DNA of 64,000 nucleotides from contig QAKH01000071.1 of the NCBI GenBank assembly GCA_003343885.1, positions 7,357 through 71,356 of the forward strand. The letters run 5' to 3'. A program made the translations under genes and the position numbers. The stretch comes from Clostridiales bacterium. Its GTDB lineage: Bacteria; Bacillota; Clostridia; Oscillospirales; CAG-382. How positions within the stretch are numbered: the first letter of the stretch is position 1; the number at the start of each line of letters is the position of its first letter. The notes below the pieces were generated by a model. The model was not told the origin of the DNA. It was given only the letters and a program-made list of their open reading frames with translations, and ran no database searches. Positions 12,204 to 51,010 of this stretch are shown one piece after another.

Positions 12204-12560
12204 TTGAGTGATTACTATTCCACGAGTTTCCGTAGAAAAATTAGAACAATTAGTTCAAAAATATGGGTATTTAAAAATGCAAACGTAGAGTTTTTTGGAA
12301 AGGAATATAATGCTAAAATATTAAATGAGGACTTCATGATTATCATTCCTAAGAAAAATTTTAGTTTATATGTTAACTCGTTTTTACCTGACATAATTAT
12401 TTCTGACATTTGTGATGATACTTGTACAAAGTTTGAGTTTGTTTTACCCAAAGTTGTCAGATTTATTTTAATGATATTTACCTTATCATTGCTGTTATTG
12501 CAATTGAGAACAAAAGTGATCAACACACTAATCATTATATATTGTGGAAAGGAATTTTGA
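12204..12560 (+). CDS. hypothetical protein (C-terminal hydrophobic segment)
   Basis: 118-aa ORF with a TTG start and a weak RBS. It ends 3 nt before the next gene and is very AT-rich. Confidence 0.3.
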   Translation: MSDYYSTSFRRKIRTISSKIWVFKNANVEFFGKEYNAKILNEDFMIIIPKKNFSLYVNSFLPDIIISDICDDTCTKFEFVLPKVVRFILMIFTLSLLLLQLRTKVINTLIIIYCGKEF

Positions 12561-12563
12561 ATT

Positions 12564-14664: not shown

Positions 14665-14668
14665 GTAA

Positions 14669-15556
14669 ATGATTATGAGCTTTTTCAGAAAAGAAGCGTT
14701 GGATAACTTCGAAACGGATGCAAATCAGTTTAAAAGCGTAAAATCCATTCACTTGCATGTATGGCTGTTGATACTTTTGTTAACTGTATGCTGTGCTTTT
14801 TTTGTTTATTGGCTGGTGTTTGGCACAATTAATGAAACTTTGTCGGTACAGTGTGTCGTGTGGCCGTATGAAAAGGTGAATAATGTTTATTCTTCAGTAA
14901 ACGGAGAAATATCAAAAGTCCTTGTGCAAGAGGGTACATTTGTTGAGACGGGAGATATCTTGGCAGTGCTCCCCCAGAATGAACTTTTAGCGAGTATATC
15001 TCAGCAGAAATCTATTGCGCCGGAAGATCAGGAGCAAATATCTGCCCTCCGGCGCCAGTATATAGCTGTTTCACTGGTCCGTGCGAAAACAACAGGAATT
15101 GTCACATATGTCGCCGACGAGCATAGCTATGCCGAAAAGGGAACTAAAATTGCCGAAATTGCGCCATTTGATAAGAACGGCAATGACCGCACTCTTGTAG
15201 CTTACCTGCCGGCAGATAAGATGGGACTTTTGTCGCTTGGTATGGAAGTACAGGTAACGCCGGAATATCTCTCAAGAGCAGGCAGTGGGTTTGCAGTCGG
15301 GTACTTGTCTGAAATATCCGATGTATCGGTAAAAGGCGAAGAAATAAAGTCGGACGACACAATTATGTTTACGTCAAACATGACTGAGAGCGAAAGCTAT
15401 GTAAAAGTAGAAATCACACTTCTGCCGGATAGTACAAATCCGGGAAATCTGAAGTGGTCGAGAGCAGAAAGCCGGAATATAGATTTTGAGATAGGCACTG
15501 TTTGCAGCGGAAATATTGTTATTCATCAATCGAATCCGCTTAATTGGCTGTTTTAG
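14669..15556 (+). CDS. short HlyD-family bacteriocin-secretion accessory protein
   Basis: The N-terminal FRKEALD is followed by a single TM and a barrel-sandwich block G.I..V.V.EG..V..GD.L. It starts 4 nt after the SBP gene. Confidence 0.75.
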   Translation: MIMSFFRKEALDNFETDANQFKSVKSIHLHVWLLILLLTVCCAFFVYWLVFGTINETLSVQCVVWPYEKVNNVYSSVNGEISKVLVQEGTFVETGDILAVLPQNELLASISQQKSIAPEDQEQISALRRQYIAVSLVRAKTTGIVTYVADEHSYAEKGTKIAEIAPFDKNGNDRTLVAYLPADKMGLLSLGMEVQVTPEYLSRAGSGFAVGYLSEISDVSVKGEEIKSDDTIMFTSNMTESESYVKVEITLLPDSTNPGNLKWSRAESRNIDFEIGTVCSGNIVIHQSNPLNWLF

Positions 15557-15565
15557 GAGAAACGT

Positions 15566-17707: not shown

Positions 17708-17709
17708 CA

Positions 17710-23100: not shown

Positions 23101-26100
23101 ATGTCGCGTATATGCCGGGCGCGCTTAATAAGCCTTCCGACCTTACAAATGTGGTTTACCGCATGCCGTCCGTCGTTGACGCGGAAACTACAACAGAAAC
23201 TACGGACAAAAACGGAGATTTGAATATTGAAACCGTTTATTCCGGCATGCAGTGGATAATGGCAGTAAATGCTCCTGAAGGAAAAATTGTCAAGTGGACA
23301 AACGGAACCGGCGACATAAAGAACGTAAACGGCGCAATAGACGTAAGCCCGGATCCTACCATCAATGAAAAGAACGAAAATACCGATTTCGGTTTAAACA
23401 GAGGCCTTTATTCACCGGTATACGGAAATGTTATGGCAGGCACTATCCTTCAGAACAATACAAAGTATTACTATGAGTTCGAGGATATCAACAGTGAGCA
23501 AGAAAAGAGGATAAGGGGGCAGATATACCGTGAAAACGGAACTTTCCGCGACATTGTGCTCGGAAATGAACTCGGCATGGAGCCGCTGTCCAATTCCATA
23601 ATAAATGTTGCGGGAACTGCCGGAAATACCGATTCAAACGGATATTTTGACATGACTGTTACCGGTATTCCGATAAGCGGATACGTAAGCCTTGTAATAA
23701 CCGATCCCGAAAGCGGCACGACGTATACGACAACTGCGCTTGCGAACTATATGTACGCAGTGCTCCCGGCATATGAGTGTTTCAAGCCGGCGGCACTCAG
23801 CGTTGTGTACGGCGAAAAAACACATACCATATCAGGTACGGCGGCTAATATCTATGACGATACGCTGACAGTCATCGCTTCGGTAGACAACTGCGGACAG
23901 CTTGTCGCAAGAGAAGTAAAGTTTTATATTGTCAAAAATAACGGTATAACTATCGATTGCGCATTAGACTCACGTTTTAAAATCAGTTTTGCCAACGGAA
24001 CCGCATCTCTTGAATTTAATCCCATGTCTGTAATGGATACCGGAGATAAAATATACGTGTCGTTTGTCGATCAGAACGGCAAGGAATATAAGAAGATGGA
24101 TATTGGCTACGACTTTGTCAAACCGCTGTCGCTTAAGGAATTTTTATTCCCGCTTATAGGCAGCTCGCTGATAGAAGATATATATGAGTCAGATATTGTC
24201 ACGGAACTTATAGGCGATCCGCTCGGCGATATTTCACTTGGCAAAATCGGCTTTGACGATCCGGTAACGAGTACCATTCTTCCTCCCGGCATTGACGACA
24301 CGCAGTATGAGTATATACGCTCAATCTATAAGTACGGCGATTTCAATCAGGCGCTGAAAACCTTTAAGTCAAAGGAAACTGAGGACAAAGATCAAGCGAC
24401 CGAGGGCAATAAGAGCGAAACGACTGCCGATAATCTGAAGGACGCCGCTAATGAGGCAGGAAAAGACACGCAGGACGCTGCGTATAAAACTCAAAATTCG
24501 TTTACTTGGGAATTTTCAGTAAAGGCGGCTTTCGGATTCTGTATAACAACAAGACAGGACGAGGATGGCGAGTACAGATATTACTTTGAGGAACTCGATT
24601 TCCTTGTCGGAGCTGATTATGACGTTGACGGCGAGGTGACAATAACGCTGCCGATAGGTATGAATGTTATTGTAAGCGGTAAGCTTTCCGGAGATGTAAC
24701 CGGTATCTATCAGCTTAAAACGGACTATACCGGAGATCCGACCTGGTCGAACAATAAAGTAGAGTACAGCACAGAGTCTTTCGGACTGTTTAAGGAAATT
24801 GACAACGTAAACCGCTACGTGTACTTAATGTTGAATCCGAATATCAGAATAGGACTTGACCTTAATTATTCGATAGTTACCGTCGGCGGCGGAGCAAACT
24901 TCAGCTTTGACATGGACTTCCGCTTTGGTCTCAATAAAAACAAGATGACGACCAAGATGTACGGAGACATGACATACTGGTTCGACTATCATGTAAAGGT
25001 TCTCAGCTTTAATGTGTATGAGGGAAAGACGGAGGAAAGTACAGTAAAGCTCTTCAGTCAGAACGCAAACGGTCACTTTGACCCGGATATAATGGAGGGA
25101 CTTTTAAATCCTGACGGCGGCGAAGCCGAACTCTCTTCAACCCTTATGTCACGTGACTACCTTGAAAATTCAACGGAGTTCTCGGGAGATAGTTTTGTTG
25201 ACCTGTATGATATAGACGCGGCTGACGGAACTGTCGAGCAGGTACTTCAGAACGGAGTTTATCCGGACGCAAAGTATAAGGCAGTTGTAACCGGAGAAGA
25301 TACAGCATTACTAGTGTTTATAGGCGACGTGCCCGACAGAAGCGCGGCAAACAGAACAGGACTTTATTATTCTGTCTATGACGGCGCAAAATGGTCGACA
25401 CCGGTCCTTGTAGACGACGACGGAACACTCGATGATTATCCCGAAGCGTTTGACCTTGGCGACAAGGTACTGATTGCCTGGTCATCCGCAGACCGTGTGC
25501 TTGATGACGGCGTAACCGTACAGGAGGCACTTACTTCACTTGATATCAAGACAGTGTTCTATGATAAAGAAACCGGCGAGTTTGACGATGTCGTAAGACT
25601 TACGCATACTACAGAGCAGGACTATACAGCAGATGTTATGCCGAAAGCGGCGTATGATGAAAGTACCGGAAAAATAATTTTGTATTATACCAAAACTGAG
25701 TATAATGAAGCTGTTACAACAGAAGATTTACTTGGAAATCCGGCGTGGGAGTCAGAAGAATCGTCAGGAAGCCCGTCGGTAATAGCGTACAGATTTTATG
25801 AGAACGGAACTTGGAACGGCGCTGAGGACTATACGGATGAGGAACTCGAAGGAGTAGCCGACAAGGAGGCGTATAAGGAAAACTGGTATGGCCAGCGCTT
25901 CCTTGACACAAGACTTAATAAAGACAGCGGCGAAATGCTGAGAATTGTTGATACCGACGCTATCTCCTATAACGGCTTGTCGATTTACGCTTGGACTGTC
26001 GACTACGATAAGGACCTGAATACTACCAATGACCGGGATGTTTTCATGCAGATATATAACTTTGATGAAAACAGCTTTACACACGTTATCCGCGTCACGG

Positions 26101-28640
26101 CAGAAGCAGGCGCATACGCAGCTCCGCATTTCGGAAGATATAATGATAATACATATCTGTTCTTCTCGGCAATTGGCGACCTTGGTAACGGAGAAGACGC
26201 CGGAAGCAGCGGTATAGCTTATATAAATATTACCGAACCAATTAAGAACGGCAGATTTACTCTTGTAAGCGAAAATAATACCGAGTACTATAAGCTGCAA
26301 TATACCAGTATAACCGCTCCTACAGTTTCCGCAGACGGTACCGAGATACCGTCAACTGAAGAAACAATACTCATAAAACCGCAGTACGCAGTTACCTTTA
26401 ACGGATATGTTAATAATTACAGCGTTGACATTGACGAAAATGAGCGTATGTATTTAACTTGGTCCGATATTCCGGAAGGCAAAGAAAACCAGCGCCAGCT
26501 CTTTACCTCAGTGTATGATGTAATGAGTGACGGCAGTGAGGAAAAGGTATATTCCGACTCTGTTTGGAGCGAGCCTTTTGTGCTGACGGGTGCAGAAAAT
26601 ACCGGTTACACAGATGTCGACACATTTGTGCTTAACGGAAAGCTTTATGCGGTTGCTAATAAAGCGCCATACACTGAGGGCGAATCAGGAAGTATGGTTT
26701 TGGACGAAAACTCGTCAAGCATGGTGATTGTCGAACATACTCCTTACTCAAAACTTGTTTCTGATGAGGAAAACGCACTTTCCGCAGATACCGGATATAT
26801 CTATGAAGGAAAAGAATTCGTGCTTACTTCATCTGTAAAGAATGAAGGCGTTAAGCTCGTAAAAGGACCTGTCACATTTAAATTTACCATGACAGCCGGT
26901 GGAGAAACAACAGATCTTGGCACCGTTGTTCGTGAAGAACCGGTCGGCGGCGGAAAAACCTCTTCCGCAAGCATTACAGTTCCTGCTCTTGATGAATTGC
27001 CGGACGATTTGACATTTAATGTCGCTGTAAGTGCCGACGGAAGTGAATTTTCACAGGAAATGAAGCTTGTTAAAGAATATTCGATCGTTTCTGACGGCGT
27101 TGTCACCATAGACAGACTGCAGGGCGGAATAAGAAAGTTCAGCCTGAATGTGGAAAATATCGGAAATATTTCTTCGGACGACGTGAGAGTTGTCGCGTAC
27201 ACCCTTAACGACGGCGAAAGAACCGATACGGTAGCTGATTTTGACGTTGGAGCAATTGAAGCTGACAGTATGGCATATGTAAGCGGTGTTTTGGATATCC
27301 AGGACAGCATGTATACGATCGATGAGAACGGACTCGGTACGGTTGACCTTGCGGTTTGCGTAACTGTCGCCGGAAAAGAAATATACAGCTTTACAACTCA
27401 GGACGGAAAGAGCTTTGATAAGCTTGCCATAGATACTCTTTCTAAGGTTGAAAGCTTTGACGTACAGAAAAACATCATTGCAGCAAAACCGGGCGAGCAA
27501 ATTGAAATTGTTCCAAACATAGCAGGAGATCTCCAAAACGACGACGTAAAGGTTATATGGAAGTCGGATAATACCGATGCGGTAATGGTAAACGACTTCG
27601 GCGAAATATTTGCCATAGACAATGGAAGCGCGACACTAACAGGATACCTTGTTCCGGCAGTCGAAATGATTGTTTTCGACGCTAATGCAAATACAGAAAG
27701 AAATACCATACCGGACAATATCCCCGATAACCTGATAAAAACGGCGCAGGTAAAGGTCAACGTAAATAATAAAACTACCATAATTACTTCCGGCGGAGAC
27801 AGCAAGCCTGTCACTGTTACATACCAGGTAACCTTTGAAACTAACGGCGCTGGTGAGATAGGAAGTGTTGAAGTCGTCGAAAACGGCGTTGTTTCAGATC
27901 TTCCGACACCTGTAAAAGAAGGCTTTACCTTTGACGGTTGGTTTACGGACACTGCCCTTACCGTGCCTTTTGACTCACAAACGAAAATAACTTCCGATAT
28001 CACGCTTTACGCAAAATGGACAGAAATTTCAGAGAATCCTGACATTTCTGACAGTTGGGAAAATCCGTTTAAAGATGTTTCGACTGACGACTGGTTCTAT
28101 GAAAACGTAAAGTATGCATATGAGAACAAGATTTTCAACGGCGTGACGGATACCGAGTTTGCACCGAACAGCCCGCTTACAAGAGCAATGCTTGTAACTG
28201 TTCTTTACAGAGTTGAGGGCGAGCCGGATACCCAAAAAGACAGCGGATTTGATGACGTTTCAAAAGACAGTTATTACAGTAAAGCGGTCGCATGGGCAAA
28301 GGAAAACGGAATAGTAAACGGTATTACTGAAACAGAATTCGCACCTGACGCTAACATTTCAAGAGAACAAATAGCGGCTATTATATACAGATATGCAAAA
28401 TTCAAAAATCAGTCACCTACCGGGGCATGGGCAATAAAGCTTGACTATGCAGACTTTGCTGATATTTCGGATTGGGCGGCAGAAGCAGTGATGTACTGTA
28501 AACTTGAAGGCATAATGCAGGGCGATGAAAATAATGAATTTAAGCCGAAAGATGACGCTACAAGAGCTCAGGCGGCTGCTATTATTCAAAGGTTTCTGGA
28601 ATGTATTGAAGCCGAGAAACAAGCGACAGTGAATGACTAA
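20157..28640 (+). CDS. giant S-layer-homology-anchored multidomain surface protein (Calx-beta repeats, ricin-type lectin, CARDB-like, Big_2, Listeria-Bacteroides repeat, 3x SLH)
   Basis: The 2820-aa ORF has these elements in order: N-terminal Calx-beta-like repeats (e.g. ISFSASKYTAMENEGEFEITVVREG); a ricin B QxW-type trefoil (AQKFKLQK, NQKWILEN); two CARDB-like modules; Big_2 (VKVIWKSDNTDAVMV); the repeat YQVTFETNG...FTFDGWFTD...LYAKWTE; and three C-terminal SLH motifs. The start is probably ATT 20157 (see findings); the track uses TTG 20178. Confidence 0.9.
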   Translation: MKFLAKRLTGIVLILSMLLPEFATMAVVQDSPQSNESSQISFSASKYTAMENEGEFEITVVREGNTDKSISVAFKAADFLAEYGVDYLVYDSDGVQLPLTEGIAPDAEDFKPVGSGETDNVELSGNSGSAFELDGVETTEEFAAGSSYAGPDNWLADNTEDQIETENNSTPAEVDKNNTSQTTRKDSGSSLMNAQAEYLDLPDENLNEISSIENALEDVHEYFESARGAMGIITFEPGETEKTFTVELIDNSKAQADKVVLFALMGVNGDENTLIEANPTAYLTIIDDEKYETPVIYPEFNEITLTEDESAYSLKLLREEGVDYYTSVTVYTVKETAAEGVDYDRIDNVKISFVPGETEKTVNVTAKAFDKDSSFGIRIEGDETCRVDNEYVRVYIQASEETVSESGEVTEVELMGERAVKYAGSATTTTTLNELGLVTGPTTGSQDGWSRKSYNSSSKWYDYGLYETYKNSGRTWISSQPTDLTGVNYVNFPHQNIGEHSFGWGNYHLFIEALSDGYQLRSYYSNPQAAIPTVYDNHGWTYTDMDVRNLNGVHYFRFGGRNDGTAADNFEVWFGNPVTFKWRLITFDTAHSPQYFERFSYDYDTKTGQKTKIPFTDGGNDYVYYPGEIYLADNSGNRITGFYGNANTFIKPVAKNAAANEKLGIELEGVYLYVKNDSELYNKNLKAPFDDIWTTDKTVWIPSSGVTLNQEFQRQLFSVFGNNLTSVKVMPKYKQREVKLNLYKADNDETYIANMDDNTDGADIADGAYYYIKSLNSNWYLADYSEGIYLSSLQNRIPISVIQSYKIDKYTKWKLVSTGDGYYNIVHVNGYYLDVRGAATANGTRIQTYESNGTDAQKFKLQKLSDGSYVIYTKVSGNKSCVDVSDYSTKAGANVHEWQYNGTSNQKWILENVENFVQYSFPINSVIKMRAEAAPKKTITGFTLVGASGTRPYTDDNAPEKISLTITENTNLYPKTEAQGMNVAYMPGALNKPSDLTNVVYRMPSVVDAETTTETTDKNGDLNIETVYSGMQWIMAVNAPEGKIVKWTNGTGDIKNVNGAIDVSPDPTINEKNENTDFGLNRGLYSPVYGNVMAGTILQNNTKYYYEFEDINSEQEKRIRGQIYRENGTFRDIVLGNELGMEPLSNSIINVAGTAGNTDSNGYFDMTVTGIPISGYVSLVITDPESGTTYTTTALANYMYAVLPAYECFKPAALSVVYGEKTHTISGTAANIYDDTLTVIASVDNCGQLVAREVKFYIVKNNGITIDCALDSRFKISFANGTASLEFNPMSVMDTGDKIYVSFVDQNGKEYKKMDIGYDFVKPLSLKEFLFPLIGSSLIEDIYESDIVTELIGDPLGDISLGKIGFDDPVTSTILPPGIDDTQYEYIRSIYKYGDFNQALKTFKSKETEDKDQATEGNKSETTADNLKDAANEAGKDTQDAAYKTQNSFTWEFSVKAAFGFCITTRQDEDGEYRYYFEELDFLVGADYDVDGEVTITLPIGMNVIVSGKLSGDVTGIYQLKTDYTGDPTWSNNKVEYSTESFGLFKEIDNVNRYVYLMLNPNIRIGLDLNYSIVTVGGGANFSFDMDFRFGLNKNKMTTKMYGDMTYWFDYHVKVLSFNVYEGKTEESTVKLFSQNANGHFDPDIMEGLLNPDGGEAELSSTLMSRDYLENSTEFSGDSFVDLYDIDAADGTVEQVLQNGVYPDAKYKAVVTGEDTALLVFIGDVPDRSAANRTGLYYSVYDGAKWSTPVLVDDDGTLDDYPEAFDLGDKVLIAWSSADRVLDDGVTVQEALTSLDIKTVFYDKETGEFDDVVRLTHTTEQDYTADVMPKAAYDESTGKIILYYTKTEYNEAVTTEDLLGNPAWESEESSGSPSVIAYRFYENGTWNGAEDYTDEELEGVADKEAYKENWYGQRFLDTRLNKDSGEMLRIVDTDAISYNGLSIYAWTVDYDKDLNTTNDRDVFMQIYNFDENSFTHVIRVTAEAGAYAAPHFGRYNDNTYLFFSAIGDLGNGEDAGSSGIAYINITEPIKNGRFTLVSENNTEYYKLQYTSITAPTVSADGTEIPSTEETILIKPQYAVTFNGYVNNYSVDIDENERMYLTWSDIPEGKENQRQLFTSVYDVMSDGSEEKVYSDSVWSEPFVLTGAENTGYTDVDTFVLNGKLYAVANKAPYTEGESGSMVLDENSSSMVIVEHTPYSKLVSDEENALSADTGYIYEGKEFVLTSSVKNEGVKLVKGPVTFKFTMTAGGETTDLGTVVREEPVGGGKTSSASITVPALDELPDDLTFNVAVSADGSEFSQEMKLVKEYSIVSDGVVTIDRLQGGIRKFSLNVENIGNISSDDVRVVAYTLNDGERTDTVADFDVGAIEADSMAYVSGVLDIQDSMYTIDENGLGTVDLAVCVTVAGKEIYSFTTQDGKSFDKLAIDTLSKVESFDVQKNIIAAKPGEQIEIVPNIAGDLQNDDVKVIWKSDNTDAVMVNDFGEIFAIDNGSATLTGYLVPAVEMIVFDANANTERNTIPDNIPDNLIKTAQVKVNVNNKTTIITSGGDSKPVTVTYQVTFETNGAGEIGSVEVVENGVVSDLPTPVKEGFTFDGWFTDTALTVPFDSQTKITSDITLYAKWTEISENPDISDSWENPFKDVSTDDWFYENVKYAYENKIFNGVTDTEFAPNSPLTRAMLVTVLYRVEGEPDTQKDSGFDDVSKDSYYSKAVAWAKENGIVNGITETEFAPDANISREQIAAIIYRYAKFKNQSPTGAWAIKLDYADFADISDWAAEAVMYCKLEGIMQGDENNEFKPKDDATRAQAAAIIQRFLECIEAEKQATVND

Positions 28641-40140: not shown

Positions 40141-40169
40141 TTGCAAAATAATAAAAAAAGTGATATTAT
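40141..40169 (+). promoter_or_regulatory. sigma-A-type promoter candidate for the 1648-aa gene
   Basis: TTGCAA (40141-40146), a 17-nt spacer, then TATTAT (40164-40169). Confidence 0.5.
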
Positions 40170-40217: not shown

Positions 40218-43200
40218 ATGACAAACGGATACAGTAACCTGAAACCCAGCATTTCTGTCGAGGCAAGTCCCATATATTCGGCTTCAATTGCTTCGTCAGG
40301 CGTATCGCCGGTTATTTCCGTAATCATTTCGGAGCTGCCGGAAAAAGAGTTTGACCTTTCTGTTTCCATAGTCGGAAAAAGCGCCGGTACTGTTTTTATA
40401 CAAACCGGTGAGAGAAACTTTGAACGGACGTGTACCGATACATATGATCGCCAGGGAAAAAACAGGTTGATAATTCGTTTTGAACAAGGCGATTTTGAAA
40501 TAAACCGGGAATATCTTTATAACCTTTATAACATTGAGTCGGCCCAAATTGCATCTTTAACGGCTAAAGTAACGATAGGCATCAAGGAATATCAAGCAGA
40601 AACTGAAATAAAACTTGCTCCGGCATATGAATGGCAGGGAATAGAGTACCACCCTGAATCTCTTGCGAGTTATATATGCAGTACTGAATCAGGAGTGGCA
40701 GAGCTTGCCGCGCCGGCAAGGGAAATACAGGAAAGAGAGCAGAAACTAAGAGCTTTGGTAAAAAATATACGGGCAAAAAATATAATCTGCGCCGCTCGTG
40801 ATTCATATAGCCCCGAAAGACGTCAGTCAATAAAAAGCCACGATGTCCTGTTGGCACGGGGAACGGTTGTTGCTACGCCTATGGAGCTTGCGGTTCTGTT
40901 TTGTGCTTGTGCGGAGTACTTGGATTTGCTGCCGGTACTCGTGTTTTCGACAAATATGACAGGCAATGTAAGCATGTTCTGCGGAGTAAGGTCAAGCCGG
41001 TGTTCTGTGACTTCAGCGGTTTTTGAAAGCCTGTCTGCATTGAGAGGCGCTATTCAAAAGGGAGAGATAGCGTTATTTGATCCGGCGCTTTTAGCTTCGG
41101 CGCAGAATATGGATCCTGTTATGGCGTGTCAGCTTGCAGGCGAGTATTTCAAGAAATTGACGACTCGTCTGGTCTTGGGCATTGATATAGAAAATTCAAG
41201 GCTTAGCGGTGTTTCACCAATGTATGCCGAAAAAAACGGATCGAACAAAACTACGGCGGCGCCGAAGGATACGTTAGCTAAAATATATGCGAATTTATCT
41301 GAAAACCGCATATTGGATATGTTAGCCGGAGTATATACATGCTGGGATATAATACCTTTGCTCGGAAAACTTGAATCTGATTCTCTGTATTGCAACGTTT
41401 CCGATAAAGAAGCCGCTCGTACAATAAAACCGCTTGAAATAAGCGATAAAATATCTGCTTTTGCAGGAATTTCAGATAATTTTGCTTCTTTCGCACTTAG
41501 GGAAGAAAAGTCTTCTTCCTACAACAAGTCGGAAATGGAAGCGGTTAGTTTAAAATATGCAAACTTCAGGGAGAAGATTTCACAGAAGAGCTGTGAGATT
41601 GCCGGATTATACGAAAAAAAATTTCACGAAACAGCGTCGAGAATGTGTTTCGGCAATACCAAAGAAAATCAAAACTACATGATTTGCGGTTTTATGAGAA
41701 TCACTCGGAGGGAAACCGGAAATACGAGATATTTGCCGCTGGCGTTTTATAAAGTGAAGCTTTGGAAGGAGTACGATTATTTTTACTCGTTTGTTTCGGA
41801 TCAGCCGGTAATAAATACCGTGCTTGTGAATTATCTTTCGGGTAGTGCCCTTCATAAGGAGTTTGCCGGCTGTAAGACGCCGTCAGACGTGTTTATGCAG
41901 TTTGAAAATCTTGCTTCTTTTGCACGTAAAAAGCACCAGGCAGAATTTTCTGACGTCTGCGTTATTTACGAAAGAGCGCTTATAAAAGCTGATTTTTCTG
42001 AATATTTTCTGCGTAATGATATAAAAGCCCATGCTTCAAAAATGCTTAAAAACAGCAACTATGAGCTCATACTCGCTAGGGGGGCGAAAAGTAATCCGGC
42101 AAACAGAGAAAATAAGGCAGATGATGTAGATGCCGGGCAGAAGAATAGTTCGGAAAGAGCATATGTACGCTTTGCTCCGAAGCATATAAAAAATATCCTC
42201 CAAAATTCTGATAACTGCGTGATTACCGGAAGCTCCGTCAAGGAAAAAATAGATGTTGCGGTAAATAGGGCGGCGTTGTCTTTTTCAAACGGTGAGACCG
42301 TTTTGGTCGCTTCGGAGAATGATGAGTTTCTCGAATGTGTAAGAAAGGAACTTGAGATATCAGGTCTTTCTGAAGCTGTTATTTGTTTGAATAAGTACGG
42401 AAGTACGGACGAACTTGTAAAGGCTATGCTTGAACGAATAGAGAAGGCGGAGCAGTGGGAGAGGAACGCTTCAGCTCCGGAAGTGCTTTCGAGCGAATTT
42501 AGTGACATAGCAGACAAGCTTAAAAAATATGGCAATGCCCTGACGGCGCCTGATAAAGACGTATGTATTTCTCCGATTGACGCTGCCGCATCTTATTACA
42601 GCGCCGCCGGAAAATGCGGCTGCATGGACTTGCTTGATGTGGAAAAGTCAGCGTTTGAAGAGTTCACCGCCGCAAAACTGAATAAGCTGTTTGAACTTGC
42701 CGAAAAATTAATTAATACTTGCAGCAGCGCTATGATTTCGGCAGGAATGAGCGAAAGTCAGCCGCTCAAAACGCACCCTCTCTTTGCGCTGTCACCGGAA
42801 AAAATGCCGGAACGAGAGGAGCTTTCTCAAGCCTCGGACTTAATATACAGAATATTGCCGGTATTATCCGAATATCGTGAAACATTTTTAGATATAAGCG
42901 ATAAGTTAGGCTTTTCCATAAATGAATTATCAAACGCAGGTAATTTGCTTGCGCTTAATGAGCTGTATCGATTGATTATTTCAGCAAGGGAACTTGACAT
43001 TCCTTCAGATTTTGAAAAATCGGATATACATAGCTTTGCTGACGGAACCGGTGAGCTCCAAAGAAATAAAAACCGCATGGAAGCAATTGAGTACCAGCTG
43101 AAATTTTTCTCACCTGAGATATTTGAGGACGTAGGAGCGATTTTATCCGGCAATGAAGCTCCGGCAAGAGAGCAGTCAGGCTTTTTGAAAAGATTTCTTG

Positions 43201-45164
43201 TGAAAATGAATGGAAAAGATGTGCTTCTCCAGTATATAACACCGGAAAACCGAATGGAATTTGCCAAGCATGATGTTTCTGAAATATACAGGCTTTTGGG
43301 CGAATACCGTGATTTAAAAAATTATATGAATTCCGGTAAAAACAATTCAAATACCGACGAAAACTCAGTGAAGCTTGCCGAGCTTGTGAAGAATATAAGC
43401 AGTACCTTGGCGGAAATTTCTCCGCAAAAGGCTAATAATAAGAATTGGCTGAACAGAGTAATTACCAATGTCTTCAAATTCATTTCCTTTGTGGAATCAG
43501 ATGCGTCTGTTTCGAAAAAATTAACTTATACACGTGCCCGTTTTGCACAGGTCTATTCAGAAAACGAATGTATGCTTGATAAGCTCTCAAATTTGCTTGG
43601 TGCGGATTTTGTTCATATTGAATTTGAAAACGGAGTACTGAATTACGACGGACTTTCAGCCTACTTAAGAAAAGTTGAAGAAAATCTTCCGTCATTGCCC
43701 GAGTGGATGAAATGGCTTGAGGCAAAGAATAAGGCTTATGACTCGCTTTCATCATTTTGTGAATACCTTGAGAATCACGGTGCCGGAGGCGATACTGACA
43801 GAATATTTGCAGCGTCTCTGCTGCTGCCTGCGACGGAATACCTCATACGTAAAAATAAATTTGATGAAAACTATGATTCCGTAAACCGTGCAAAATTCAA
43901 ATACCGTGAGTTAATAACACGTACTGCGGCATTGGCAGCAGTAAATGCAATTGACGCATATAAACAAAGATTAAAACATTATCTTGAAACGGAGAACGTG
44001 TCCTCAGTATCAGACGATGCCGGACTGCCGATAGGTGAGTTTATACTAAAGCACAAGGCAAAACTGTTCCGTTTGTTCCCATGCGTAATTGTCAATTCAC
44101 GGGATACGGGAATTTACTTTGGCGGCGAGTGCGTCGCAGATCATCTGATAGCCTGTGATGAAGGCGAAAGCGGAATGTTAAATACCGGCATAATTTCGTG
44201 TGCGAAAAAAGTGATGATGCTGTCTTTCGGACCGACTCCTGGTTTTGCGGCGCAAATGCTGTTAGACGCCGGTGTTACGAGAGCGGACGTATCTTATCAC
44301 ATATATCCGCTTAACAGAAAGTTGGCGGCATGCTTTGGAGACGGCAAATTTTATAATATGCCGGAGGACGCGTCAACCATTAGTTCAATAACCGTTAACG
44401 GTTACATGAGATGTTCAACTGACCTTGCAAATCCGGCAGAAGCTGAAACTTGCGTATCAAAGGCTGTTGAGCTTGCCGGAAAAAGCGACGGACGTGTGGC
44501 AATATTCTGTTTTACTCATGGACAGTATGCGTATATAAGGCATTTGCTGTGTATCGGAGCGGAAAATGATAAAAAGATAAAAGAACTGCTCGAGCAGCAG
44601 AAAATATGCGTAAGAAGTGTCAACGATATATCTTTCGAGCAGTATGAAAATGTTATCGTTTCTTTTGCGGCGGCACCTGATAAGGAGGGAACTCCGTGCA
44701 GAAGCTCCGGGCTTGGAAACGACAGACAAATCCGAAGCGCAATGTTAAATATTGCGAACGCATGTGCCGGAGGGGATACAATATTTGTCACATCCCTGTC
44801 ATTGAAGGAATGTGCGGATTTTGTGAAAAAGGCGCTTGGAACAGCACAGATGTATATGGCTTTGCTGTTTTCAGCAAGTAAGGTTATACCCATTTCAATT
44901 GCTGACAGCCGGAGTTTTGAAAATCCTCTCTCAAGGCACTTGCTTGGTACATATAAAGACGCTTTTCCCGCTAAAGGAATTTACGATTGCGCGACAGAAG
45001 CTGCAGTGTGTGATGATGGCAGGATAGTAATGTACGATTGCTCCGGTTCTGACGATATACTTGACCGGCTTGCCGTCTGTGAGATGATAGAACGCTCCGG
45101 GACAAAGTGCGAGTGCGTTTCTCCGCTCGAAACCGTATTAAAAGAGGTAAAAGGGAAAAAATAG
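40218..45164 (+). CDS. 1648-aa cytoplasmic DUF4011/Upf1-like (AAA_11/AAA_12) helicase-fold protein with degenerate catalytic motifs
   Basis: RBS GAAGGAGAG. The layout is colinear with DUF4011-type SF1 helicases as I recall them: YLPLAFYKVKL (aa 505-515), VLVASENDEFLECVRKELEISGLSEAVICLNKYG (motif Ia region) and NPAEAE...VAIFCFTHGQ. Walker A reads ITGSSVKEK (42222-42248), and the motif III and HYRS positions are also non-canonical. Confidence 0.7.
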   Translation: MTNGYSNLKPSISVEASPIYSASIASSGVSPVISVIISELPEKEFDLSVSIVGKSAGTVFIQTGERNFERTCTDTYDRQGKNRLIIRFEQGDFEINREYLYNLYNIESAQIASLTAKVTIGIKEYQAETEIKLAPAYEWQGIEYHPESLASYICSTESGVAELAAPAREIQEREQKLRALVKNIRAKNIICAARDSYSPERRQSIKSHDVLLARGTVVATPMELAVLFCACAEYLDLLPVLVFSTNMTGNVSMFCGVRSSRCSVTSAVFESLSALRGAIQKGEIALFDPALLASAQNMDPVMACQLAGEYFKKLTTRLVLGIDIENSRLSGVSPMYAEKNGSNKTTAAPKDTLAKIYANLSENRILDMLAGVYTCWDIIPLLGKLESDSLYCNVSDKEAARTIKPLEISDKISAFAGISDNFASFALREEKSSSYNKSEMEAVSLKYANFREKISQKSCEIAGLYEKKFHETASRMCFGNTKENQNYMICGFMRITRRETGNTRYLPLAFYKVKLWKEYDYFYSFVSDQPVINTVLVNYLSGSALHKEFAGCKTPSDVFMQFENLASFARKKHQAEFSDVCVIYERALIKADFSEYFLRNDIKAHASKMLKNSNYELILARGAKSNPANRENKADDVDAGQKNSSERAYVRFAPKHIKNILQNSDNCVITGSSVKEKIDVAVNRAALSFSNGETVLVASENDEFLECVRKELEISGLSEAVICLNKYGSTDELVKAMLERIEKAEQWERNASAPEVLSSEFSDIADKLKKYGNALTAPDKDVCISPIDAAASYYSAAGKCGCMDLLDVEKSAFEEFTAAKLNKLFELAEKLINTCSSAMISAGMSESQPLKTHPLFALSPEKMPEREELSQASDLIYRILPVLSEYRETFLDISDKLGFSINELSNAGNLLALNELYRLIISARELDIPSDFEKSDIHSFADGTGELQRNKNRMEAIEYQLKFFSPEIFEDVGAILSGNEAPAREQSGFLKRFLVKMNGKDVLLQYITPENRMEFAKHDVSEIYRLLGEYRDLKNYMNSGKNNSNTDENSVKLAELVKNISSTLAEISPQKANNKNWLNRVITNVFKFISFVESDASVSKKLTYTRARFAQVYSENECMLDKLSNLLGADFVHIEFENGVLNYDGLSAYLRKVEENLPSLPEWMKWLEAKNKAYDSLSSFCEYLENHGAGGDTDRIFAASLLLPATEYLIRKNKFDENYDSVNRAKFKYRELITRTAALAAVNAIDAYKQRLKHYLETENVSSVSDDAGLPIGEFILKHKAKLFRLFPCVIVNSRDTGIYFGGECVADHLIACDEGESGMLNTGIISCAKKVMMLSFGPTPGFAAQMLLDAGVTRADVSYHIYPLNRKLAACFGDGKFYNMPEDASTISSITVNGYMRCSTDLANPAEAETCVSKAVELAGKSDGRVAIFCFTHGQYAYIRHLLCIGAENDKKIKELLEQQKICVRSVNDISFEQYENVIVSFAAAPDKEGTPCRSSGLGNDRQIRSAMLNIANACAGGDTIFVTSLSLKECADFVKKALGTAQMYMALLFSASKVIPISIADSRSFENPLSRHLLGTYKDAFPAKGIYDCATEAAVCDDGRIVMYDCSGSDDILDRLAVCEMIERSGTKCECVSPLETVLKEVKGKK

Positions 45165-45179
45165 GAAAGGATGTGCAGC

Positions 45180-46199
45180 ATGCCTGTTATTCGGGGAAGC
45201 CTTGTCGGAATTGATCTCGGCACGGCGAATTGCCTTGTTTGCACTAAGGAAAAAGGAATAGTAATACGAGAACCGTCAGTTGTCAGCTATGATCTCGGTT
45301 CTGACAGAGTGCTTGCCATCGGTACCGAAGCCAAGCGGATGATTGGCAAAACTCCGTACGGCATAACAACGGTCAGACCGTTAAAGGACGGCGTTATTGC
45401 AGATTTTGAGCTCACACTGGTAATGATGAAAATGTTTATAAAAAGAGCTATGCATTCGTCCATTATTTCCCGTCCTCATGTCATAGTATGTATTCCGTAC
45501 GGGATTACCGAGGTCGAGCAGAGAGCTGTTGAGAATGCAGCTGTTGAGGCTGGAGCATCAGGCGTGTCGCTGATTGACGAGCCGGTTGCAGCGGCAATAG
45601 GAGCAGGACTGCCGATAAGACAGTGCAAGGGAAATATGATTGTGGATATCGGAGGTGGAACTACTGAGGTTGCGGTGGTAACGGCAGGAGGCGTTGCGGT
45701 ATCAAAATCCTTGAGAGTTGCCGGCGACAGCTGCGACAAAGCAATAGCAGAGTATATAAGAAAGAAATTCAATGTTCTTATTGGAGAAACTACGGCTGAG
45801 GAAATAAAAACGGAAATAGGTTCTGTGCATCCTTCAACCGACATAGGTATGCTCGAAGTCAGGGGAAGAAATCTTGCAACAGGGCTTCCATCTGTTTTCA
45901 ATATATATTCACGCGAAATCAATGAAGCAATATCGTCGCCGATAAACGCAATAGTGGACGTAATAAAGTCTACGCTCGAAGCAACTCCTCCCGAACTTTG
46001 CTCCGATCTTTACGACAACGGAATGACTATTTCCGGTGGAGGCGCTTTACTTGCAGGTTTTCCGTTACTTCTTCAGGAAAGAACCGGTTTACCGGTGACA
46101 GTAGCCAAACATCCGCTTGACTGTGTTGCAGACGGCATACTCAAGGTTATGAGCTCTTCGGTTTTCAGAGGAGTTCTTAAAGAAGTTAAGAAAATATAA
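45180..46199 (+). CDS. mreB: MreB/Mbl family actin-like protein
   Basis: Contains GIDLGTAN, RPLKDGVIADF, EPVAAAIGAG and DIGGGTTEVAV. ATG 45180 lies 9 nt after the RBS GGAAAGGA, and the track start at 45171 overlaps that RBS. Confidence 0.9.
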   Translation: MPVIRGSLVGIDLGTANCLVCTKEKGIVIREPSVVSYDLGSDRVLAIGTEAKRMIGKTPYGITTVRPLKDGVIADFELTLVMMKMFIKRAMHSSIISRPHVIVCIPYGITEVEQRAVENAAVEAGASGVSLIDEPVAAAIGAGLPIRQCKGNMIVDIGGGTTEVAVVTAGGVAVSKSLRVAGDSCDKAIAEYIRKKFNVLIGETTAEEIKTEIGSVHPSTDIGMLEVRGRNLATGLPSVFNIYSREINEAISSPINAIVDVIKSTLEATPPELCSDLYDNGMTISGGGALLAGFPLLLQERTGLPVTVAKHPLDCVADGILKVMSSSVFRGVLKEVKKI

Positions 46200-46279: not shown

Positions 46280-47941
46280 ATGAACAAACTCAAAAAAATC
46301 CAGTTTAAAAGCAACAACGAATTTCTTTCGGAACGTCCTGTTTTTGTGATCGTAATGGATGGTGTTGGTATTGCTCCTGAATCCGAAGGCAATGCGGTTA
46401 AAAACGCGAAAACACCTACGCTTGATATGCTCATGCAAAAATACCCGATGCTTAAGCTTAAGGCGCACGGCACAGCTGTCGGACTTCCCAGTGACGACGA
46501 CATGGGTAACTCCGAAGTCGGTCACAATGCTCTTGGCGCCGGCCAGGTTTTTGCTCAGGGCGCAAAACTTGTCTCAAATTCAATAGAGAGCGGTAAGATG
46601 TTTGAATCAAAGGCATGGAATGAGGTTGTATCGGTAAAAGATACCGGTAAAACTCTCCATTTTATAGGATTGTTTTCCGACGGTAACGTTCATTCTCATA
46701 TAGATCATCTTAAAGCAATGATTGAAAGAAGCAAAAAGGACGGAGTAAAGACCGTAAGAATCCATATACTTTTAGACGGAAGGGATGTAGGAGAAACATC
46801 AGCACTCGACTATGTAAACCCATTTGAAGAGTTTTTGGCTCAGCTTAATTCTGACGGATTTGACGCGAAAATCGCTTCCGGCGGCGGAAGAATGAATATC
46901 ACCATGGATAGATATGAAGCAAACTGGTCAATGGTTGAAAAGGGATGGAAGACTCATGTCCTCGGAGAGGGAAGACAGTTTGAGAGCGCAGCGGAAGCAA
47001 TAGAAACATACCGTAAGGAGCTTTCCTGCATTGACCAAGACCTTCCTCCTTTTGTCATAGCTAAGGATGGAAAACCGGTAGGCAAAATTACCGACGGCGA
47101 CAGCGTTGTATTTTATAATTTCCGCGGCGACAGAGCCATAGAAATATCAAGAGCTTTCGAGGAAGAGAATTTTGATAAGTTTGACCGTGTTGTGTTCCCG
47201 AAGGTGACATATGCAGGTATGCTCGAATATGACGGAGATCTGCACATCCCGTCCCGCTACCTTGTAAGCCCTCCTGAAATTACAGGCACAATGGGAGAAT
47301 TTCTCGCAAATACGGGAGTTACACAGTACGCACTCTCAGAAACGCAGAAATTCGGCCATGTTACCTATTTCTGGAACGGAAATAAGAGCGGAAAGTTTGA
47401 TGAGCAAACAGAGCTGTATGAAGAAATAAAGTCAGATATTGTTCCGTTTGAGCAAAGACCGTGGATGAAGTGTGCACAGATAACCGACAGACTTATTGAG
47501 GTTGCAAATGAAGGCAAATTTCGCTTTATGAGAGTAAACTTCCCAAATGGAGATATGGTTGGCCATACCGGTAACTATCTTGCAACTGTCGTTTCCATGG
47601 AAGCGCTTGATTTGTGCCTTGCAAGAATAATTGAAGCGATAGACAAAGTCAAAGGCGTTGCAATAATTACGGCTGACCACGGAAACGCTGATGAAATGTA
47701 TGAAATGGATAAGAAAACCGGACTTCCCAAGAAAGACAAGGAAGGACACTATAAGGCTAAAACTAGCCATACTCTTAATCCTGTACCATGCATAATTTAT
47801 GATAACTTTGGTTCTGACAGCTATACTGTTAAGCAGTCTGATAATTACGGACTTTCAAACGTCGCTGCAACAGTTGTAAATCTGATGGGATATGAGGCAC
47901 CTGACTTCTGGGACAGCAGTATGATAGAGATAAACAAGTAA
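46280..47941 (+). CDS. gpmI: 2,3-bisphosphoglycerate-independent phosphoglycerate mutase (long ~550-aa form)
   Basis: Contains [28 protein letters not shown] and ADHGNADEM. Confidence 0.93.
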
Positions 47942-48053: not shown

Positions 48054-49514
48054 ATGAAAAGAAACGTCTGCTTTGTTTTGTCTGCCTGTGCTTTTATGTT
48101 TTTGCAGTTGTTTGTATTTGCTGAAAATATTAACATAGACTATGCTGTGGAATCATCGCTTGAATACGGTGCCGACGTGCAGGAACCGATTGAAGTACAT
48201 ACGTCAAATGTTCTTGAGGGAGAAGGAACCGAAGAATCGCCGTACATAATATCAAATTTGGCTGATTTCTTGTTTTTTGGTGAAAAGGTGAATTCCGGCG
48301 ATCCAGATTATTTTTCGGCTTGCTATCTTCAAACAGACCATATCAAGGTTCTTGACGCCGGATTAGTACCGATAGGAACTCTTGAATATCCGTTTTGCGG
48401 AGTTTATGACGGAAACGGATATAGTATAAGTTATACTTTGACTGCCGAGACAAGTACTGCAAATTACGGGCTGTTCGGTGTGGCGAAAAATGCGTCTTTT
48501 AAAAATCTTTCTGTTTTTGCCGACGTATATTCTGTATACAGTGATTCCGAAGAAGCGGCGGCAGCCTTGTTGTGCGCAAGATACTTGTCCGACAAGAGTG
48601 CAGAGTTTGCAATAAGTAATTGTTATGCAAAAGGAAATCTTAGACTCGTGTCAGACAGCACCGTTTCGTTTGCAGGAGGTCTTGTAGGCAGAATTAATAT
48701 TGGCAGCGGAAAGCTTGTGATTTCTGACTGTGCATCTGACGTAAGCGTGTTTTCACAAGCTAAAAATATCGGATACGCCGCAGGAATAGCAGGCTGTGTT
48801 TCAGCAAGTTCAAAGGGCGTTGCTCAGATTTTGCAGTGTTTCAGTACAAATAAGGTTGAAGCACACGGAAACAGCGTTTATGCATATGCAGGCGGAATAA
48901 CAGGGTACTTTATGCAGGATCCCAAAGGCTGGACGGATTGGTATACTTTGAGTTCGGCAGAAAGTACGCAATTAAGCATGTCTTGCTGTATTTCCGACTG
49001 CGAACTTGTTTCACAGGGCAAGTTTAAAGGTTATATCGGCGGAATTTCGGCATATATCCACGACGAAATGAAATACGATAAATTGTATTTTACAGGTGTC
49101 CAGATAACTCCTACTTCTATGTCGGTTAACGGAGAAATCAAGAATAAAGGTGAAGTTTTTGAAAATGCTTTTCTGACAACAGATTTGAACTTTGATTTGC
49201 TTAATACGTGGACGCTGGTTCAGGGAGAGAGATTATTTATATCAAATAACTGCCCAGAGCTCTTTTCGTATGTAAATCAAGAAACGGGAGAAATAAGTGT
49301 TTGCCCTGTTAACAGTGAAGCAGGAAAGCTGATAGTTTCATTTTACAGTGCTGACGGACGTTATCTGAGAAGTAAAGTGTTTGATTTTAACGGAACAAAC
49401 GGAAGCGTATTTTCTGCTGCGGCAGCTTCCGGAACAAAATATGTAAAAACTTACCTTCTTGATGCAGTGACTGTAAAACCGCTTTCGGAAAATTCCACAT
49501 TGACTGTCGGTTAA
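48054..49514 (+). CDS. secreted GLUG-motif-like protein, paralog A
   Basis: It has a signal peptide plus G..ESPYII.....F and YPFCGVYDGNGYSI. FAGGLVG and YAGGITG repeats are also present. Confidence 0.6.
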   Translation: MKRNVCFVLSACAFMFLQLFVFAENINIDYAVESSLEYGADVQEPIEVHTSNVLEGEGTEESPYIISNLADFLFFGEKVNSGDPDYFSACYLQTDHIKVLDAGLVPIGTLEYPFCGVYDGNGYSISYTLTAETSTANYGLFGVAKNASFKNLSVFADVYSVYSDSEEAAAALLCARYLSDKSAEFAISNCYAKGNLRLVSDSTVSFAGGLVGRINIGSGKLVISDCASDVSVFSQAKNIGYAAGIAGCVSASSKGVAQILQCFSTNKVEAHGNSVYAYAGGITGYFMQDPKGWTDWYTLSSAESTQLSMSCCISDCELVSQGKFKGYIGGISAYIHDEMKYDKLYFTGVQITPTSMSVNGEIKNKGEVFENAFLTTDLNFDLLNTWTLVQGERLFISNNCPELFSYVNQETGEISVCPVNSEAGKLIVSFYSADGRYLRSKVFDFNGTNGSVFSAAAASGTKYVKTYLLDAVTVKPLSENSTLTVG

Positions 49515-49543: not shown

Positions 49544-51010
49544 ATGACAGTAAAATTAATAGGCACCGTTAAATATTTTGTCCCTTGTATTCTGATTTTT
49601 ATGTTCTTAACAGTTGCGGTTACAGCTTCAGAAACAGCGATTGGCAATGCTCCGATAGCCTTGCAGGGAAACTTTGCGCCGGCGCAAGATCCGGAAGTGC
49701 TTCAAGGAAGCGGCACGAGAGAAGATCCGTTTATAATTTCAGATACTGATGATTTCCTGTACTTTGCTTATCAGGTTAATTCCGTAAGTTCTCTTTACTC
49801 GAACGCATGCTATAAACAAACCGGAGACGTTATTATCTCGGATAGTTTGTATAATCCGGTCGGAACACATCAGTTCCCGTTTTGCGGAGATTATGACGGA
49901 GATGGAAATTATACCGAATTAAATATTTCTGACAGTAATTCGCAAGTTGCCGCATTATTTGGGTACGCTGAAAATGCAAATTTTAAAAATATGCAAATAA
50001 ACGTTTGTATAGACGTGCAAAATTCAACCGGTGAGATTGTTGCCGCCGGATTGTGCGGAGATTACTTGGCGGATGAGCTTGGAAACACGTTTGAAATAAG
50101 TAAAATAAGCGTAACAGGAAATGTAAAGTCTGTAAGCGGAGAATCTATTGCTGTATCAGCAGGAGTTGTCGGAAGAGTACACGTTCAAAAAGGTAAGCTT
50201 CTGTTTTCCGATTGTGTGTCACATTGTTCAGCTTATGCAGAAGCAAAAACCACTGCATATGCGTCAGGAATTGCAAGCCATGTAGCGGCAGAATCGACCG
50301 GAGTTGCTTCTTTCGTAAGATGTGCTGTTACATCGGAGGTTTCCTCAAAATCCGGACAGTATTATCATTCTTTTGCCGGAGGAATTGCCGGTTATTTTAC
50401 TCAGGATCCTGAGGGCTGGTCCGGATGGGTAAGCACAAAGGTCTTTTTGGCGGAATCTTCAAATTACAACTTGGAGAATTGCCTTGCTGAGTGTACCATT
50501 GAGAGCACTGCATCGAATCCGTTGTTTGTACACATTGGTCAAATCGCTGCGTTTGTTTCTGAAGGCGTGCAGATAAACAAAAACAGTTTGTTTTATACTG
50601 CAGGTACGCAGATGCCGGATTGCTCAAATGCTGTTAACGGTACTTTTACTGATAAGAAGCAGCTTTTTGATACAGAGTTTCTCTTCTCGGTTCTCGGCTT
50701 TGATTTTGAAAATGTGTGGATAAATATCAATGGACAAAGACTGGAGCTGATAAGTCAAAATGGCTGGTTATATAAGGAGATTACAGATAATACGGCATTA
50801 ATACAACCCGTTAATTGCGCTGCCGGAAATTTAGTAGTTTCTTTTGTTGACGAAAACGGAAGAATTACGGATATTAAAGTGTTTGACTATGATCCGGCTT
50901 CGAATGTTTTTGTGAAAATTGATTTAACTGAATATGGCTCTGTATCAGACCTAAGGACATTCCTGCTCCAAGACGGTACACTTATGCCGCTTGCCAGAAA
51001 AATCTCTTGA
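49544..51010 (+). CDS. secreted GLUG-motif-like protein, paralog B
   Basis: Colinear with paralog A: GTREDPFII, FPFCGDYDGDGNY, SAGVVG and FAGGIAG. Confidence 0.6.
   Translation: MTVKLIGTVKYFVPCILIFMFLTVAVTASETAIGNAPIALQGNFAPAQDPEVLQGSGTREDPFIISDTDDFLYFAYQVNSVSSLYSNACYKQTGDVIISDSLYNPVGTHQFPFCGDYDGDGNYTELNISDSNSQVAALFGYAENANFKNMQINVCIDVQNSTGEIVAAGLCGDYLADELGNTFEISKISVTGNVKSVSGESIAVSAGVVGRVHVQKGKLLFSDCVSHCSAYAEAKTTAYASGIASHVAAESTGVASFVRCAVTSEVSSKSGQYYHSFAGGIAGYFTQDPEGWSGWVSTKVFLAESSNYNLENCLAECTIESTASNPLFVHIGQIAAFVSEGVQINKNSLFYTAGTQMPDCSNAVNGTFTDKKQLFDTEFLFSVLGFDFENVWININGQRLELISQNGWLYKEITDNTALIQPVNCAAGNLVVSFVDENGRITDIKVFDYDPASNVFVKIDLTEYGSVSDLRTFLLQDGTLMPLARKIS

Follow-up and report, generated by a model that had tools for sequence, protein, structure and literature searches.

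We analysed a stretch of 64,000 nucleotides (nt) from a contig of a Clostridiales bacterium (QAKH01000071.1), hereafter the window, to whose numbering all positions refer unless another locus is named. The subject is a giant open reading frame (ORF) of 1648 amino acids (aa), P0001, together with the gene of the MreB/Mbl family which follows it. An initial annotation, made from the letters of the sequence, had described P0001 as a pseudo-enzyme related to the Upf1-like helicases of superfamily 1 (SF1) and had linked it to the adjacent MreB. The features of the locus are as follows.

40141..40169 (+): sigma-A-type promoter with an extended -10 element, TTGCAA-N13-GTG-n-TATTAT (pattern search and promoter scan)
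40218..45164 (+): P0001, giant ORF of 1648 aa, catalytically degenerate homologue of the DUF4011-type SF1B helicase-nucleases
40248..40616 (+): N-terminal beta-rich region, aa 11-133, probably a beta-sandwich (strands in the predicted model, Foldseek)
40473..41270 (+): domain in common with the ProA N-terminus, aa 86-351 (NF058533 match, hhalign columns)
42222..42248 (+): degenerate Walker A, ITGSSVKEK, aa 669-677 (GPPGTGKSQ in active relatives)
42405..44075 (+): all-helical insertion splitting RecA-like domain 1, aa 730-1286 (secondary structure of the model, conservation, partial PDC-S37 and Hhe matches)
44154..44171 (+): degenerate motif II, CDEGES, aa 1313-1318 (alignment columns)
44265..44897 (+): RecA-like domain 2, AAA_12-like, approximately aa 1350-1560, with motifs IV, V and VI degenerate
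44925..45161 (+): C-terminal REase_MTES_1575-like domain, approximately aa 1570-1648, its signature gone and no DUF3320 after it
45165..45171 (+): Shine-Dalgarno (SD)-like GAAAGGA for mreB, beginning right after the stop codon of the giant gene and conserved in all seven loci compared
45180..46199 (+): MreB/Mbl-family actin-like protein, 339 aa in all seven loci (start at 45171 in the ORF list)
46280..47941 (+): gpmI, 2,3-bisphosphoglycerate-independent phosphoglycerate mutase (Pfam iPGM_N and Metalloenzyme)

The giant ORF ends in a TAG codon at 45162-45164. Besides the Walker A and motif II blocks, the initial annotation had quoted SFGPTPGF (aa 1336-1343), HIYP (aa 1361-1364), RSAMLNIANACAG (aa 1506-1518) and VLVAS...NKYG (aa 695-728), and for each of the six blocks both residues and nucleotides proved correct. 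The strongest sequence tie of P0001 to its active relatives is the region of aa 86-351. Concerning the overall layout, the secondary structure of the AlphaFold2 models, which are of low confidence, fits the one expected: a strand-helix-strand unit at the former P-loop, about 560 helical residues, and then an alpha/beta region. Residues 11-133 of the N-terminal model consist entirely of strands, with a predicted local distance difference test score (pLDDT) of about 50-82, and the Foldseek matches of this model are beta-sandwich domains only (125-144 columns, E-values from 4e-4).

The family to which P0001 belongs became visible through exhaustive search. A word-indexed search with P0001 gave 5 clusters; exhaustive phmmer with aa 1-1200 gave 56 proteins at E <= 1e-3, of which 34 lie at <= 1e-10 and 18 at <= 1e-30. 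The first tier comprises about 17 colinear proteins of 1600-1690 aa with 28-47% identity to P0001, and the second tier proteins of about 1570-1750 aa with 22-28% identity. A third group, made up of a few proteins of 1745-2141 aa, is of the active type: based on Pfam its members carry DUF4011, a split AAA_11, AAA_12 and REase_MTES_1575, to which DUF3320 is added in four of the five that are full-length, and DUF4011 is matched at 1e-37 to 1e-48 in all seven proteins scanned. The picture is different for 13 proteins of the first and second tiers, where Pfam finds no family in nine, spurious weak matches in two and a weak DUF4011 in two. One of these two, the intermediate relative P0024, has weak AAA_12 and MTES_1575 matches in Pfam as well. 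No name is attached to the dead family in the 53 members looked at across 10 clusters. Also, no relatives were found by tblastn in 72,556 plasmid records or 50,697 phage records, and a dead branch of the DUF4011 or Prometheus-type helicase-nucleases is not described in the literature searched.

The colinearity with DUF4011/AAA_11/AAA_12 helicases, to which Pfam is blind, was borne out by partial family matches and by profile-profile alignment. At E <= 1, Pfam finds no DUF4011, AAA_11 or AAA_12 in P0001 and returns only a spurious VopS_N, and phmmer with P0001 against PDB gave 0 matches. NCBIfam NF058533 (ProA) matches aa 86-351 at 7.9e-39 (positions 55-328 of a 1903-position profile); the score of 133 bits lies below the equivalog cut-off of 1500 bits. 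NF042953 (Hhe) matches aa 665-1067 at 8.4e-7 (26.7 bits against a cut-off of 2000), and the PADLOC candidate PDC-S37 matches aa 687-1185 at 2.3e-12, both partially. The comparison of the HHpred type that had been proposed for the 1648-aa protein was run with hhalign, 19 first-tier dead proteins being set against five active ones; the probability is 100% and the E-value 2.1e-64 over 1509 columns, and the alignment extends over query positions 15-1621 and template positions 9-1724 of 2002. The active profile matches IGHMBP2, Sen1, Upf1 and DNA2 in PDB at 1e-12 to 1e-7, whereas the profile of the dead family finds nothing there below E 0.2. In the protein-language-model Atlas, the clusters nearest to P0001 are all DUF4011/AAA_11.

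Judged by these matches, the relatives of the P0001 family are helicase-nucleases of the Prometheus and Hhe defence kind, which the initial annotation had overlooked. ProA makes up the single-protein defence system Prometheus and is described as having four domains, with DUF4011 at the N-terminus, DUF3320 at the C-terminus and an insertion in its DNA2 nuclease domain (PMC13700489). Prometheus activity is stated to require every domain (PMC13700489, citing van den Berg et al. 2024). PDC-S37 is not mentioned in the literature searched.

The motif columns were read from a MAFFT alignment limited to the 43 proteins with a length of 1500 aa or more, which excludes fragments and the shorter of the active proteins. 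The blocks that had been quoted from P0001 fall exactly in the Walker A, motif II, motif III, motif IV and motif VI columns of the active relatives, and the residues at each site are as follows.

Walker A: active GPPGTGKSQT; P0001 TGSSVKEKID
Walker B (motif II): active FDEAS; P0001 IACDEG
Motif III: active GDPKQLPPT; P0001 SFGPTPGF
Motif IV: active WHYRSRHESL; P0001 SYHIYPLNRKL
Motif V: active VKNLENVQGDERD; P0001 VRSVNDISFEQYEN
Motif VI: active GGERRLNVAITRAR (core RRLNVAITRAR); P0001 DRQIRSAMLNIANACAG (core RSAMLNIANACAG)
Nuclease signature: active RIDLAV / ECDG / RDRDR / LGW..RIWS.DWW; P0001 TEAAV / YDCSG / LDRLA / SGTKCECVSP

At the aligned columns Walker A, a conserved Walker B, motifs III to VI and the nuclease signature are thus all gone, in agreement with the proposal of a pseudo-enzyme. 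The motif II column reads CDDSG, CTDGG, CDGSE, AGAFE and so on in the relatives of P0001; the DE pair is present in the P0001 copy only and its Glu is not conserved across the clade. A displaced intact Walker A or B, which would have overturned the description of P0001 as a dead helicase, was also sought and none is present. The sole [AG]x4GK[ST] string of the protein, AVELAGKS at aa 1416, falls on a helix predicted in the second RecA-like domain and lacks conservation among the relatives; no intact P-loop has shifted elsewhere in P0001.

The C-terminal nuclease-like domain, which the initial annotation did not take into account, is degenerate too, judging by its aligned residues, and the C-terminus of P0001 is reached where DUF3320 would begin. 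A third degenerate site is possibly present in the N-terminal domain. The GTC...GH motif of the active relatives (GTC...GH...D-type; aa 120-345 of the active protein P0052, corresponding to about aa 130-330 of P0001) is ATP...GN in the dead family, with Cys replaced by Pro and His by Asn. An Atlas query with the P0052 region leads to clusters in which Transglut_core (12%), DUF553 (10%) and Transglut_core2 (43%) occur in minority shares. A transglutaminase-like fold is suggested by this resemblance of clusters, and the site is offered as a lead only.

Looking at the Walker A column across the 43 full-length proteins, five have the canonical GPPGTGKS, nine keep GxxGxGK but with K or M in place of the Ser/Thr, and in 29 the P-loop is missing. 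The loss is therefore family-wide and not a lesion of the window copy. In a quick FastTree phylogeny, with the root assumed on the active group, every dead protein lies on one long branch; the forms that keep GK are found in basal or side lineages, and the P-loop is fully lost in two sublineages, one of which contains P0001. Read from the aligned residues and this tree, the decay appears stepwise: it began with the Ser/Thr of Walker A and the Glu of Walker B, and the P-loop as a whole disappeared afterwards in the two sublineages.

Further loci were collected by a genome scan, which yielded six (L001 to L006) among 122 pattern matches, all in metagenome-assembled genomes (MAGs) titled Eubacteriales, Clostridia, Clostridiales or Oscillospiraceae. 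Their giant proteins are 35-42% identical to P0001. The ORF of roughly 4.9 kb is intact in six of the seven loci, the window included. In L006 one frameshift near aa 1018-1020 (L006:10990-11010) breaks it into two ORFs (1016 and 497 aa), each of which is still conserved; misassembly or a recent inactivation could account for the frameshift. The ratio of nonsynonymous to synonymous substitution rates (dN/dS), determined by the Nei-Gojobori method for three locus pairs, is 0.13 (L003/L004), 0.14 (L001/L002) and 0.16 (L001/L003) for the giant gene, and in the same pairs 0.02-0.04 for mreB and 0.02-0.03 for gpmI. The giant gene is under purifying selection, and these ratios together with the intact ORFs rule out that it is a pseudogene.

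The constraint is not spread evenly along the protein. In windows of 40 aa, the mean column conservation of the dead family peaks at aa 881-1040 and 1081-1200 (0.56-0.67), whereas the remaining windows of P0001 range from 0.29 to 0.62 and are mostly at 0.35-0.55. Both peak stretches lie inside the all-helical insertion (aa 730-1286), which is the most conserved part of the dead family; aa 201-240 and 1401-1440 come next. The insertion of the five active proteins, judged by eye, has few majority-consensus residues.

Downstream of the giant gene, the sequence between the TAG and the candidate start codons of mreB is GGAAAGGA, with ATG at 45171 and at 45180. The pattern GAAAGG(A/G)TGTG-nnnn-ATG is kept in all seven loci. 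The ATG at 45180 is likely the start of mreB, because it is conserved in all seven, whereas the first start codon is GTG in L006. Counted to the conserved ATG, the giant gene and mreB are 15 nt apart in the window and L005, 42 nt in L006 and 111-142 nt in L001 to L004; the tight junction that had been described for the window holds, with 15 nt and the SD-like GAAAGGA directly after the stop codon. The downstream protein matches Pfam MreB_Mbl at 1.1e-128 (429.1 bits, cut-off 27, residues 12-328), TIGR00904 with 413.9 bits (cut-off 365.75) and PRK13927 with 439.9 bits (cut-off 293), and stays under the MreBH cut-off (370.5 against 515 bits). Three segments which we take to be the phosphate and adenosine loops of the actin fold, GIDLGTAN, DIGGGTTEVAV and GGGALL, vary little or not at all among the seven MreB sequences. 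Domain scans found no mreC or mreD among the window ORFs scanned, and gpmI comes after mreB, as had been noted for the window. The status of orphan paralogue that the initial annotation gave this mreB is tentative, the window showing only that mreC and mreD do not adjoin it.

The tail of P0001, ...VLKEVKGKK (45138-45161), resembles that of the window MreB, ...VLKEVKKI (46172-46196). The MreB tail VL.EVKK is kept in all seven loci; there is no DNA-level repeat and the peptide is not conserved in the relatives of P0001, so the VLKEVK common to both C-termini is put down to chance.

The adjacency of the giant gene and mreB, first seen in the window, extends to all six MAG loci: mreB lies directly 3' of the giant gene in each, with 78-80% identity of the MreB protein. 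gpmI follows mreB in five of the six (84-86% identity), and the contig of L005 ends before that point. After gpmI the window has two paralogous genes for proteins of about 490 aa (48054-49514 and 49544-51010), with signal-peptide-like N-termini and no Pfam or NCBIfam family; the pair is syntenic in L001, L003 and L004, the loci which reach that far, at 27-30% identity. The 5' side is different, since the upstream neighbours take four forms among the seven loci. The window has a divergent GT4 glycosyltransferase gene. L001 has spoIIIAA/AB, a SpoIID-like peptidoglycan-binding gene, and then spoIIGA and a sigE-like sigma factor gene directly before the giant gene (L001:6167-7861), where sigG usually follows sigE; the upstream ORFs of L002 to L004 are laid out as in L001 by size and strand. 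Flavodoxin, HAD and DHH genes precede the giant gene in L005, and infB and an EPSP-synthase-family gene in L006. The rearrangement breakpoints thus lie 5' of the promoter of the giant gene in the four contexts and never between the giant gene and mreB. A sporulation link suggested by the spoIIGA/sigE context of L001 to L004 was rejected, given the sigma-A-like character of the conserved promoter and the other neighbours in the remaining three loci.

The promoter pattern TTGCAA-N13-GTG-n-TA(T/C)nAT lies just 5' of the giant gene start in all seven loci. It is matched once in the 64-kb window and never in 100 shuffles of it, and each of the six MAG loci likewise holds exactly one match. The giant gene-mreB gaps of L001 and L003 are free of promoter-like and terminator-like sites on the plus strand, and Rfam elements gave 0 matches in the window, L001, L003 and L006. 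The window neighbours (a glycosyltransferase, iPGM, secreted proteins, ABC transporters and sugar metabolism) are ordinary chromosomal genes; no defence genes flank the giant gene in the window, and PADLOC yields one partial match only.

Elsewhere in the window, a 2820-aa ORF (20178-28640) with SLH, ricin-type lectin, Calx-beta and Listeria-Bacteroides repeat domains presumably encodes a cell-surface protein. An NHLP-type bacteriocin export set (13510-19824) comprises an HlyD-like adaptor and two ABC transporter subunits, one with a peptidase domain, and small ORFs without a family match lie 5' of it (12204-13124). On the reverse strand, a 1019-aa ORF (3193-6252) has no NCBIfam match at E <= 1e-6.

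Based on the above, P0001 very probably belongs to an unannotated family which descends from the DUF4011 SF1B helicase-nucleases, has lost the catalytic residues and is kept by selection in a housekeeping chromosomal context. P0001 itself would be a vertically inherited descendant of the Upf1-like SF1B lineage that includes ProA and Hhe. It appears to have kept the architecture of that lineage: the N-terminal domain, the DUF4011-like region, the split RecA1 with its insertion, RecA2 and the Vsr/MTES_1575-like end domain. The residues for Mg-ATP binding, for the coupling of hydrolysis and for DNA cutting are lost, so that P0001 would be neither a motor nor a nuclease. By analogy with other SF1-fold proteins that have lost catalysis, P0001 most likely serves as a scaffold or binding protein that does not depend on ATP. 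Its working surface would most plausibly be the helical insertion, the most constrained part of the dead family. Transcription would start at the gene's own sigma-A-type promoter, the giant gene being the first of a unit that runs into mreB and probably into gpmI. Co-transcription of the giant gene with mreB is likely; gpmI is possibly in the same transcription unit. Taken as a whole, the best explanation is a vertically inherited dead scaffold or binding protein with its own promoter, in a unit that runs into mreB, to which we assign a probability of about 0.6.

A physical or functional partnership between P0001 and MreB is tentative. In its most specific form, for which the chances are rather poor, a Prometheus/Hhe-type enzyme would have been domesticated in the ancestor of the clostridial clade into a housekeeping scaffold, its helicase and nuclease sites and perhaps a transglutaminase-like one all dead, which works physically with the MreB of the same operon through the insertion; such a protein might, for instance, anchor MreB filaments on nucleic acid or on some other structure of the cell. 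A dead scaffold could instead have a job unrelated to MreB, for example as a RecC-like non-catalytic subunit or a regulator binding nucleic acid or protein, with partners encoded elsewhere, the gene order being inherited and bringing at most co-expression. We regard this as possible but doubtful. By best match (P0001, P0006, P0007, near P0006, near P0014 and P0013) the seven loci represent one crown clade of the family tree only, and gpmI, with no known tie to MreB, is just as syntenic as mreB, as are the two secreted-protein genes, so that the adjacency could be inherited gene order. The giant protein also evolves several times faster than MreB, as the identities to the window copies show (35-42% against 78-80%), a pace uncommon in, though compatible with, a closely bound structural partner. 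In the four loci with gaps of 111-142 nt, an mreB promoter could have escaped recognition. A weak indication in the same direction, given the length window of 600-2000 aa, comes from 122 longer MreB proteins, which comprise fusions with MreC, kinases, GGDEF domains and others: in none of them is MreB fused to a partner as large as the giant protein. On the other side stand the breakpoints, which never fall inside the giant gene-mreB pair, the stop codon that abuts the mreB ribosome-binding site in two loci, and the gaps of L001 and L003 with their lack of promoter-like sites. Two further points weigh against the scaffold reading as such. The nine relatives with GxxGxGK could bind nucleotide without hydrolysing it, and the low-confidence models do not confirm the fold or the shape of the former ATP site: both models rest on a 6-sequence alignment and are poor, with pLDDT 53.6 and a predicted template modelling score (pTM) of 0.36 for aa 640-1648, and pLDDT 47.9 and pTM 0.31 for aa 1-659. 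At E <= 1e-3, Foldseek found nothing for the C-terminal model, and above that threshold there were local Aquarius matches only (about 146 residues, probability 0.91-0.98, E 0.2-0.3).

It is improbable that P0001 is still an immune or conflict protein, acting as an ATP-independent sensor, decoy or regulator, with an arms race behind its fast evolution. The nearest named relatives (ProA, Hhe and the candidate PDC-S37) are anti-phage proteins (PMC13700489), and the dN/dS of the giant gene is about 4 to 8 times that of its neighbours. However, values of 0.13-0.16 mean selection that is purifying overall and not diversifying, the flanks hold no defence genes, PADLOC gives a single partial match, the plasmid and phage collections hold no relatives, and both the stable synteny with housekeeping genes and the conserved sigma-A-type promoter argue against such a role. 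It is very unlikely that P0001 remains an NTPase through a non-canonical site. The low confidence of the structure models, the retained GxxGxGK of the nine relatives and the DE that P0001 happens to have at motif II would allow it; against it, the P-loop glycines and lysine are gone in the clade of P0001, the motif II Glu is unconserved, the residues of motifs III, V and VI, including the arginine finger region, are replaced, and the AVELAGKS string is helical and unconserved.

Whatever its partner, a dead scaffold which retains an architecture of 1600 residues under selection would be a clean case of an immune enzyme turned to another use. If the MreB link is functional, P0001 would be a large new accessory factor of the bacterial actin cytoskeleton in gut Clostridia, and, should the partnership hold, would represent a new class of bacterial actin-associated protein; if the link is not functional, the family is still in need of a function. 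The initial annotation knew of no described pairing of a dead helicase with an actin-like filament protein, and in the literature searched no work holds both DUF4011 and MreB.

Prometheus ProA is among the closest known systems. Its colinearity with P0001 is near full-length: the N-terminal domain, the DUF4011 region, the split AAA_11 with a long insertion, AAA_12 and an MTES_1575-type end are found in both. P0001 differs in that it has no helicase motifs, no nuclease signature and no DUF3320, and no defence context surrounds it. Hhe and PDC-S37 resemble P0001 through partial profile matches on its RecA1 and insertion region, and P0001 differs from them by the absence of catalytic motifs.

Concerning the downstream gene, the comparison is with the MreB/Mbl/MreBH paralogues of Firmicutes, of which it is a full-length member, exceeding the cut-offs of Pfam and TIGR00904; in Bacillus subtilis, mbl and mreBH are likewise not accompanied by mreC and mreD. 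The arrangement differs from the mreBCD rod-shape operon, with gpmI and not mreC/mreD after mreB in the window and in five of the six further loci. For the loss of catalysis in a helicase fold kept as a scaffold, of which a few cases are known, the parallel is given by RecC of RecBCD and AddB of AddAB, which have an SF1 helicase fold (RecC also a nuclease fold), have lost catalysis and serve as scaffold or recognition subunits. Both are SF1A and not DUF4011/Upf1-like, with no family-level homology to P0001, and work in complex with active helicase-nuclease subunits encoded alongside; in the case of P0001 no active partner adjoins, and the neighbour is MreB.

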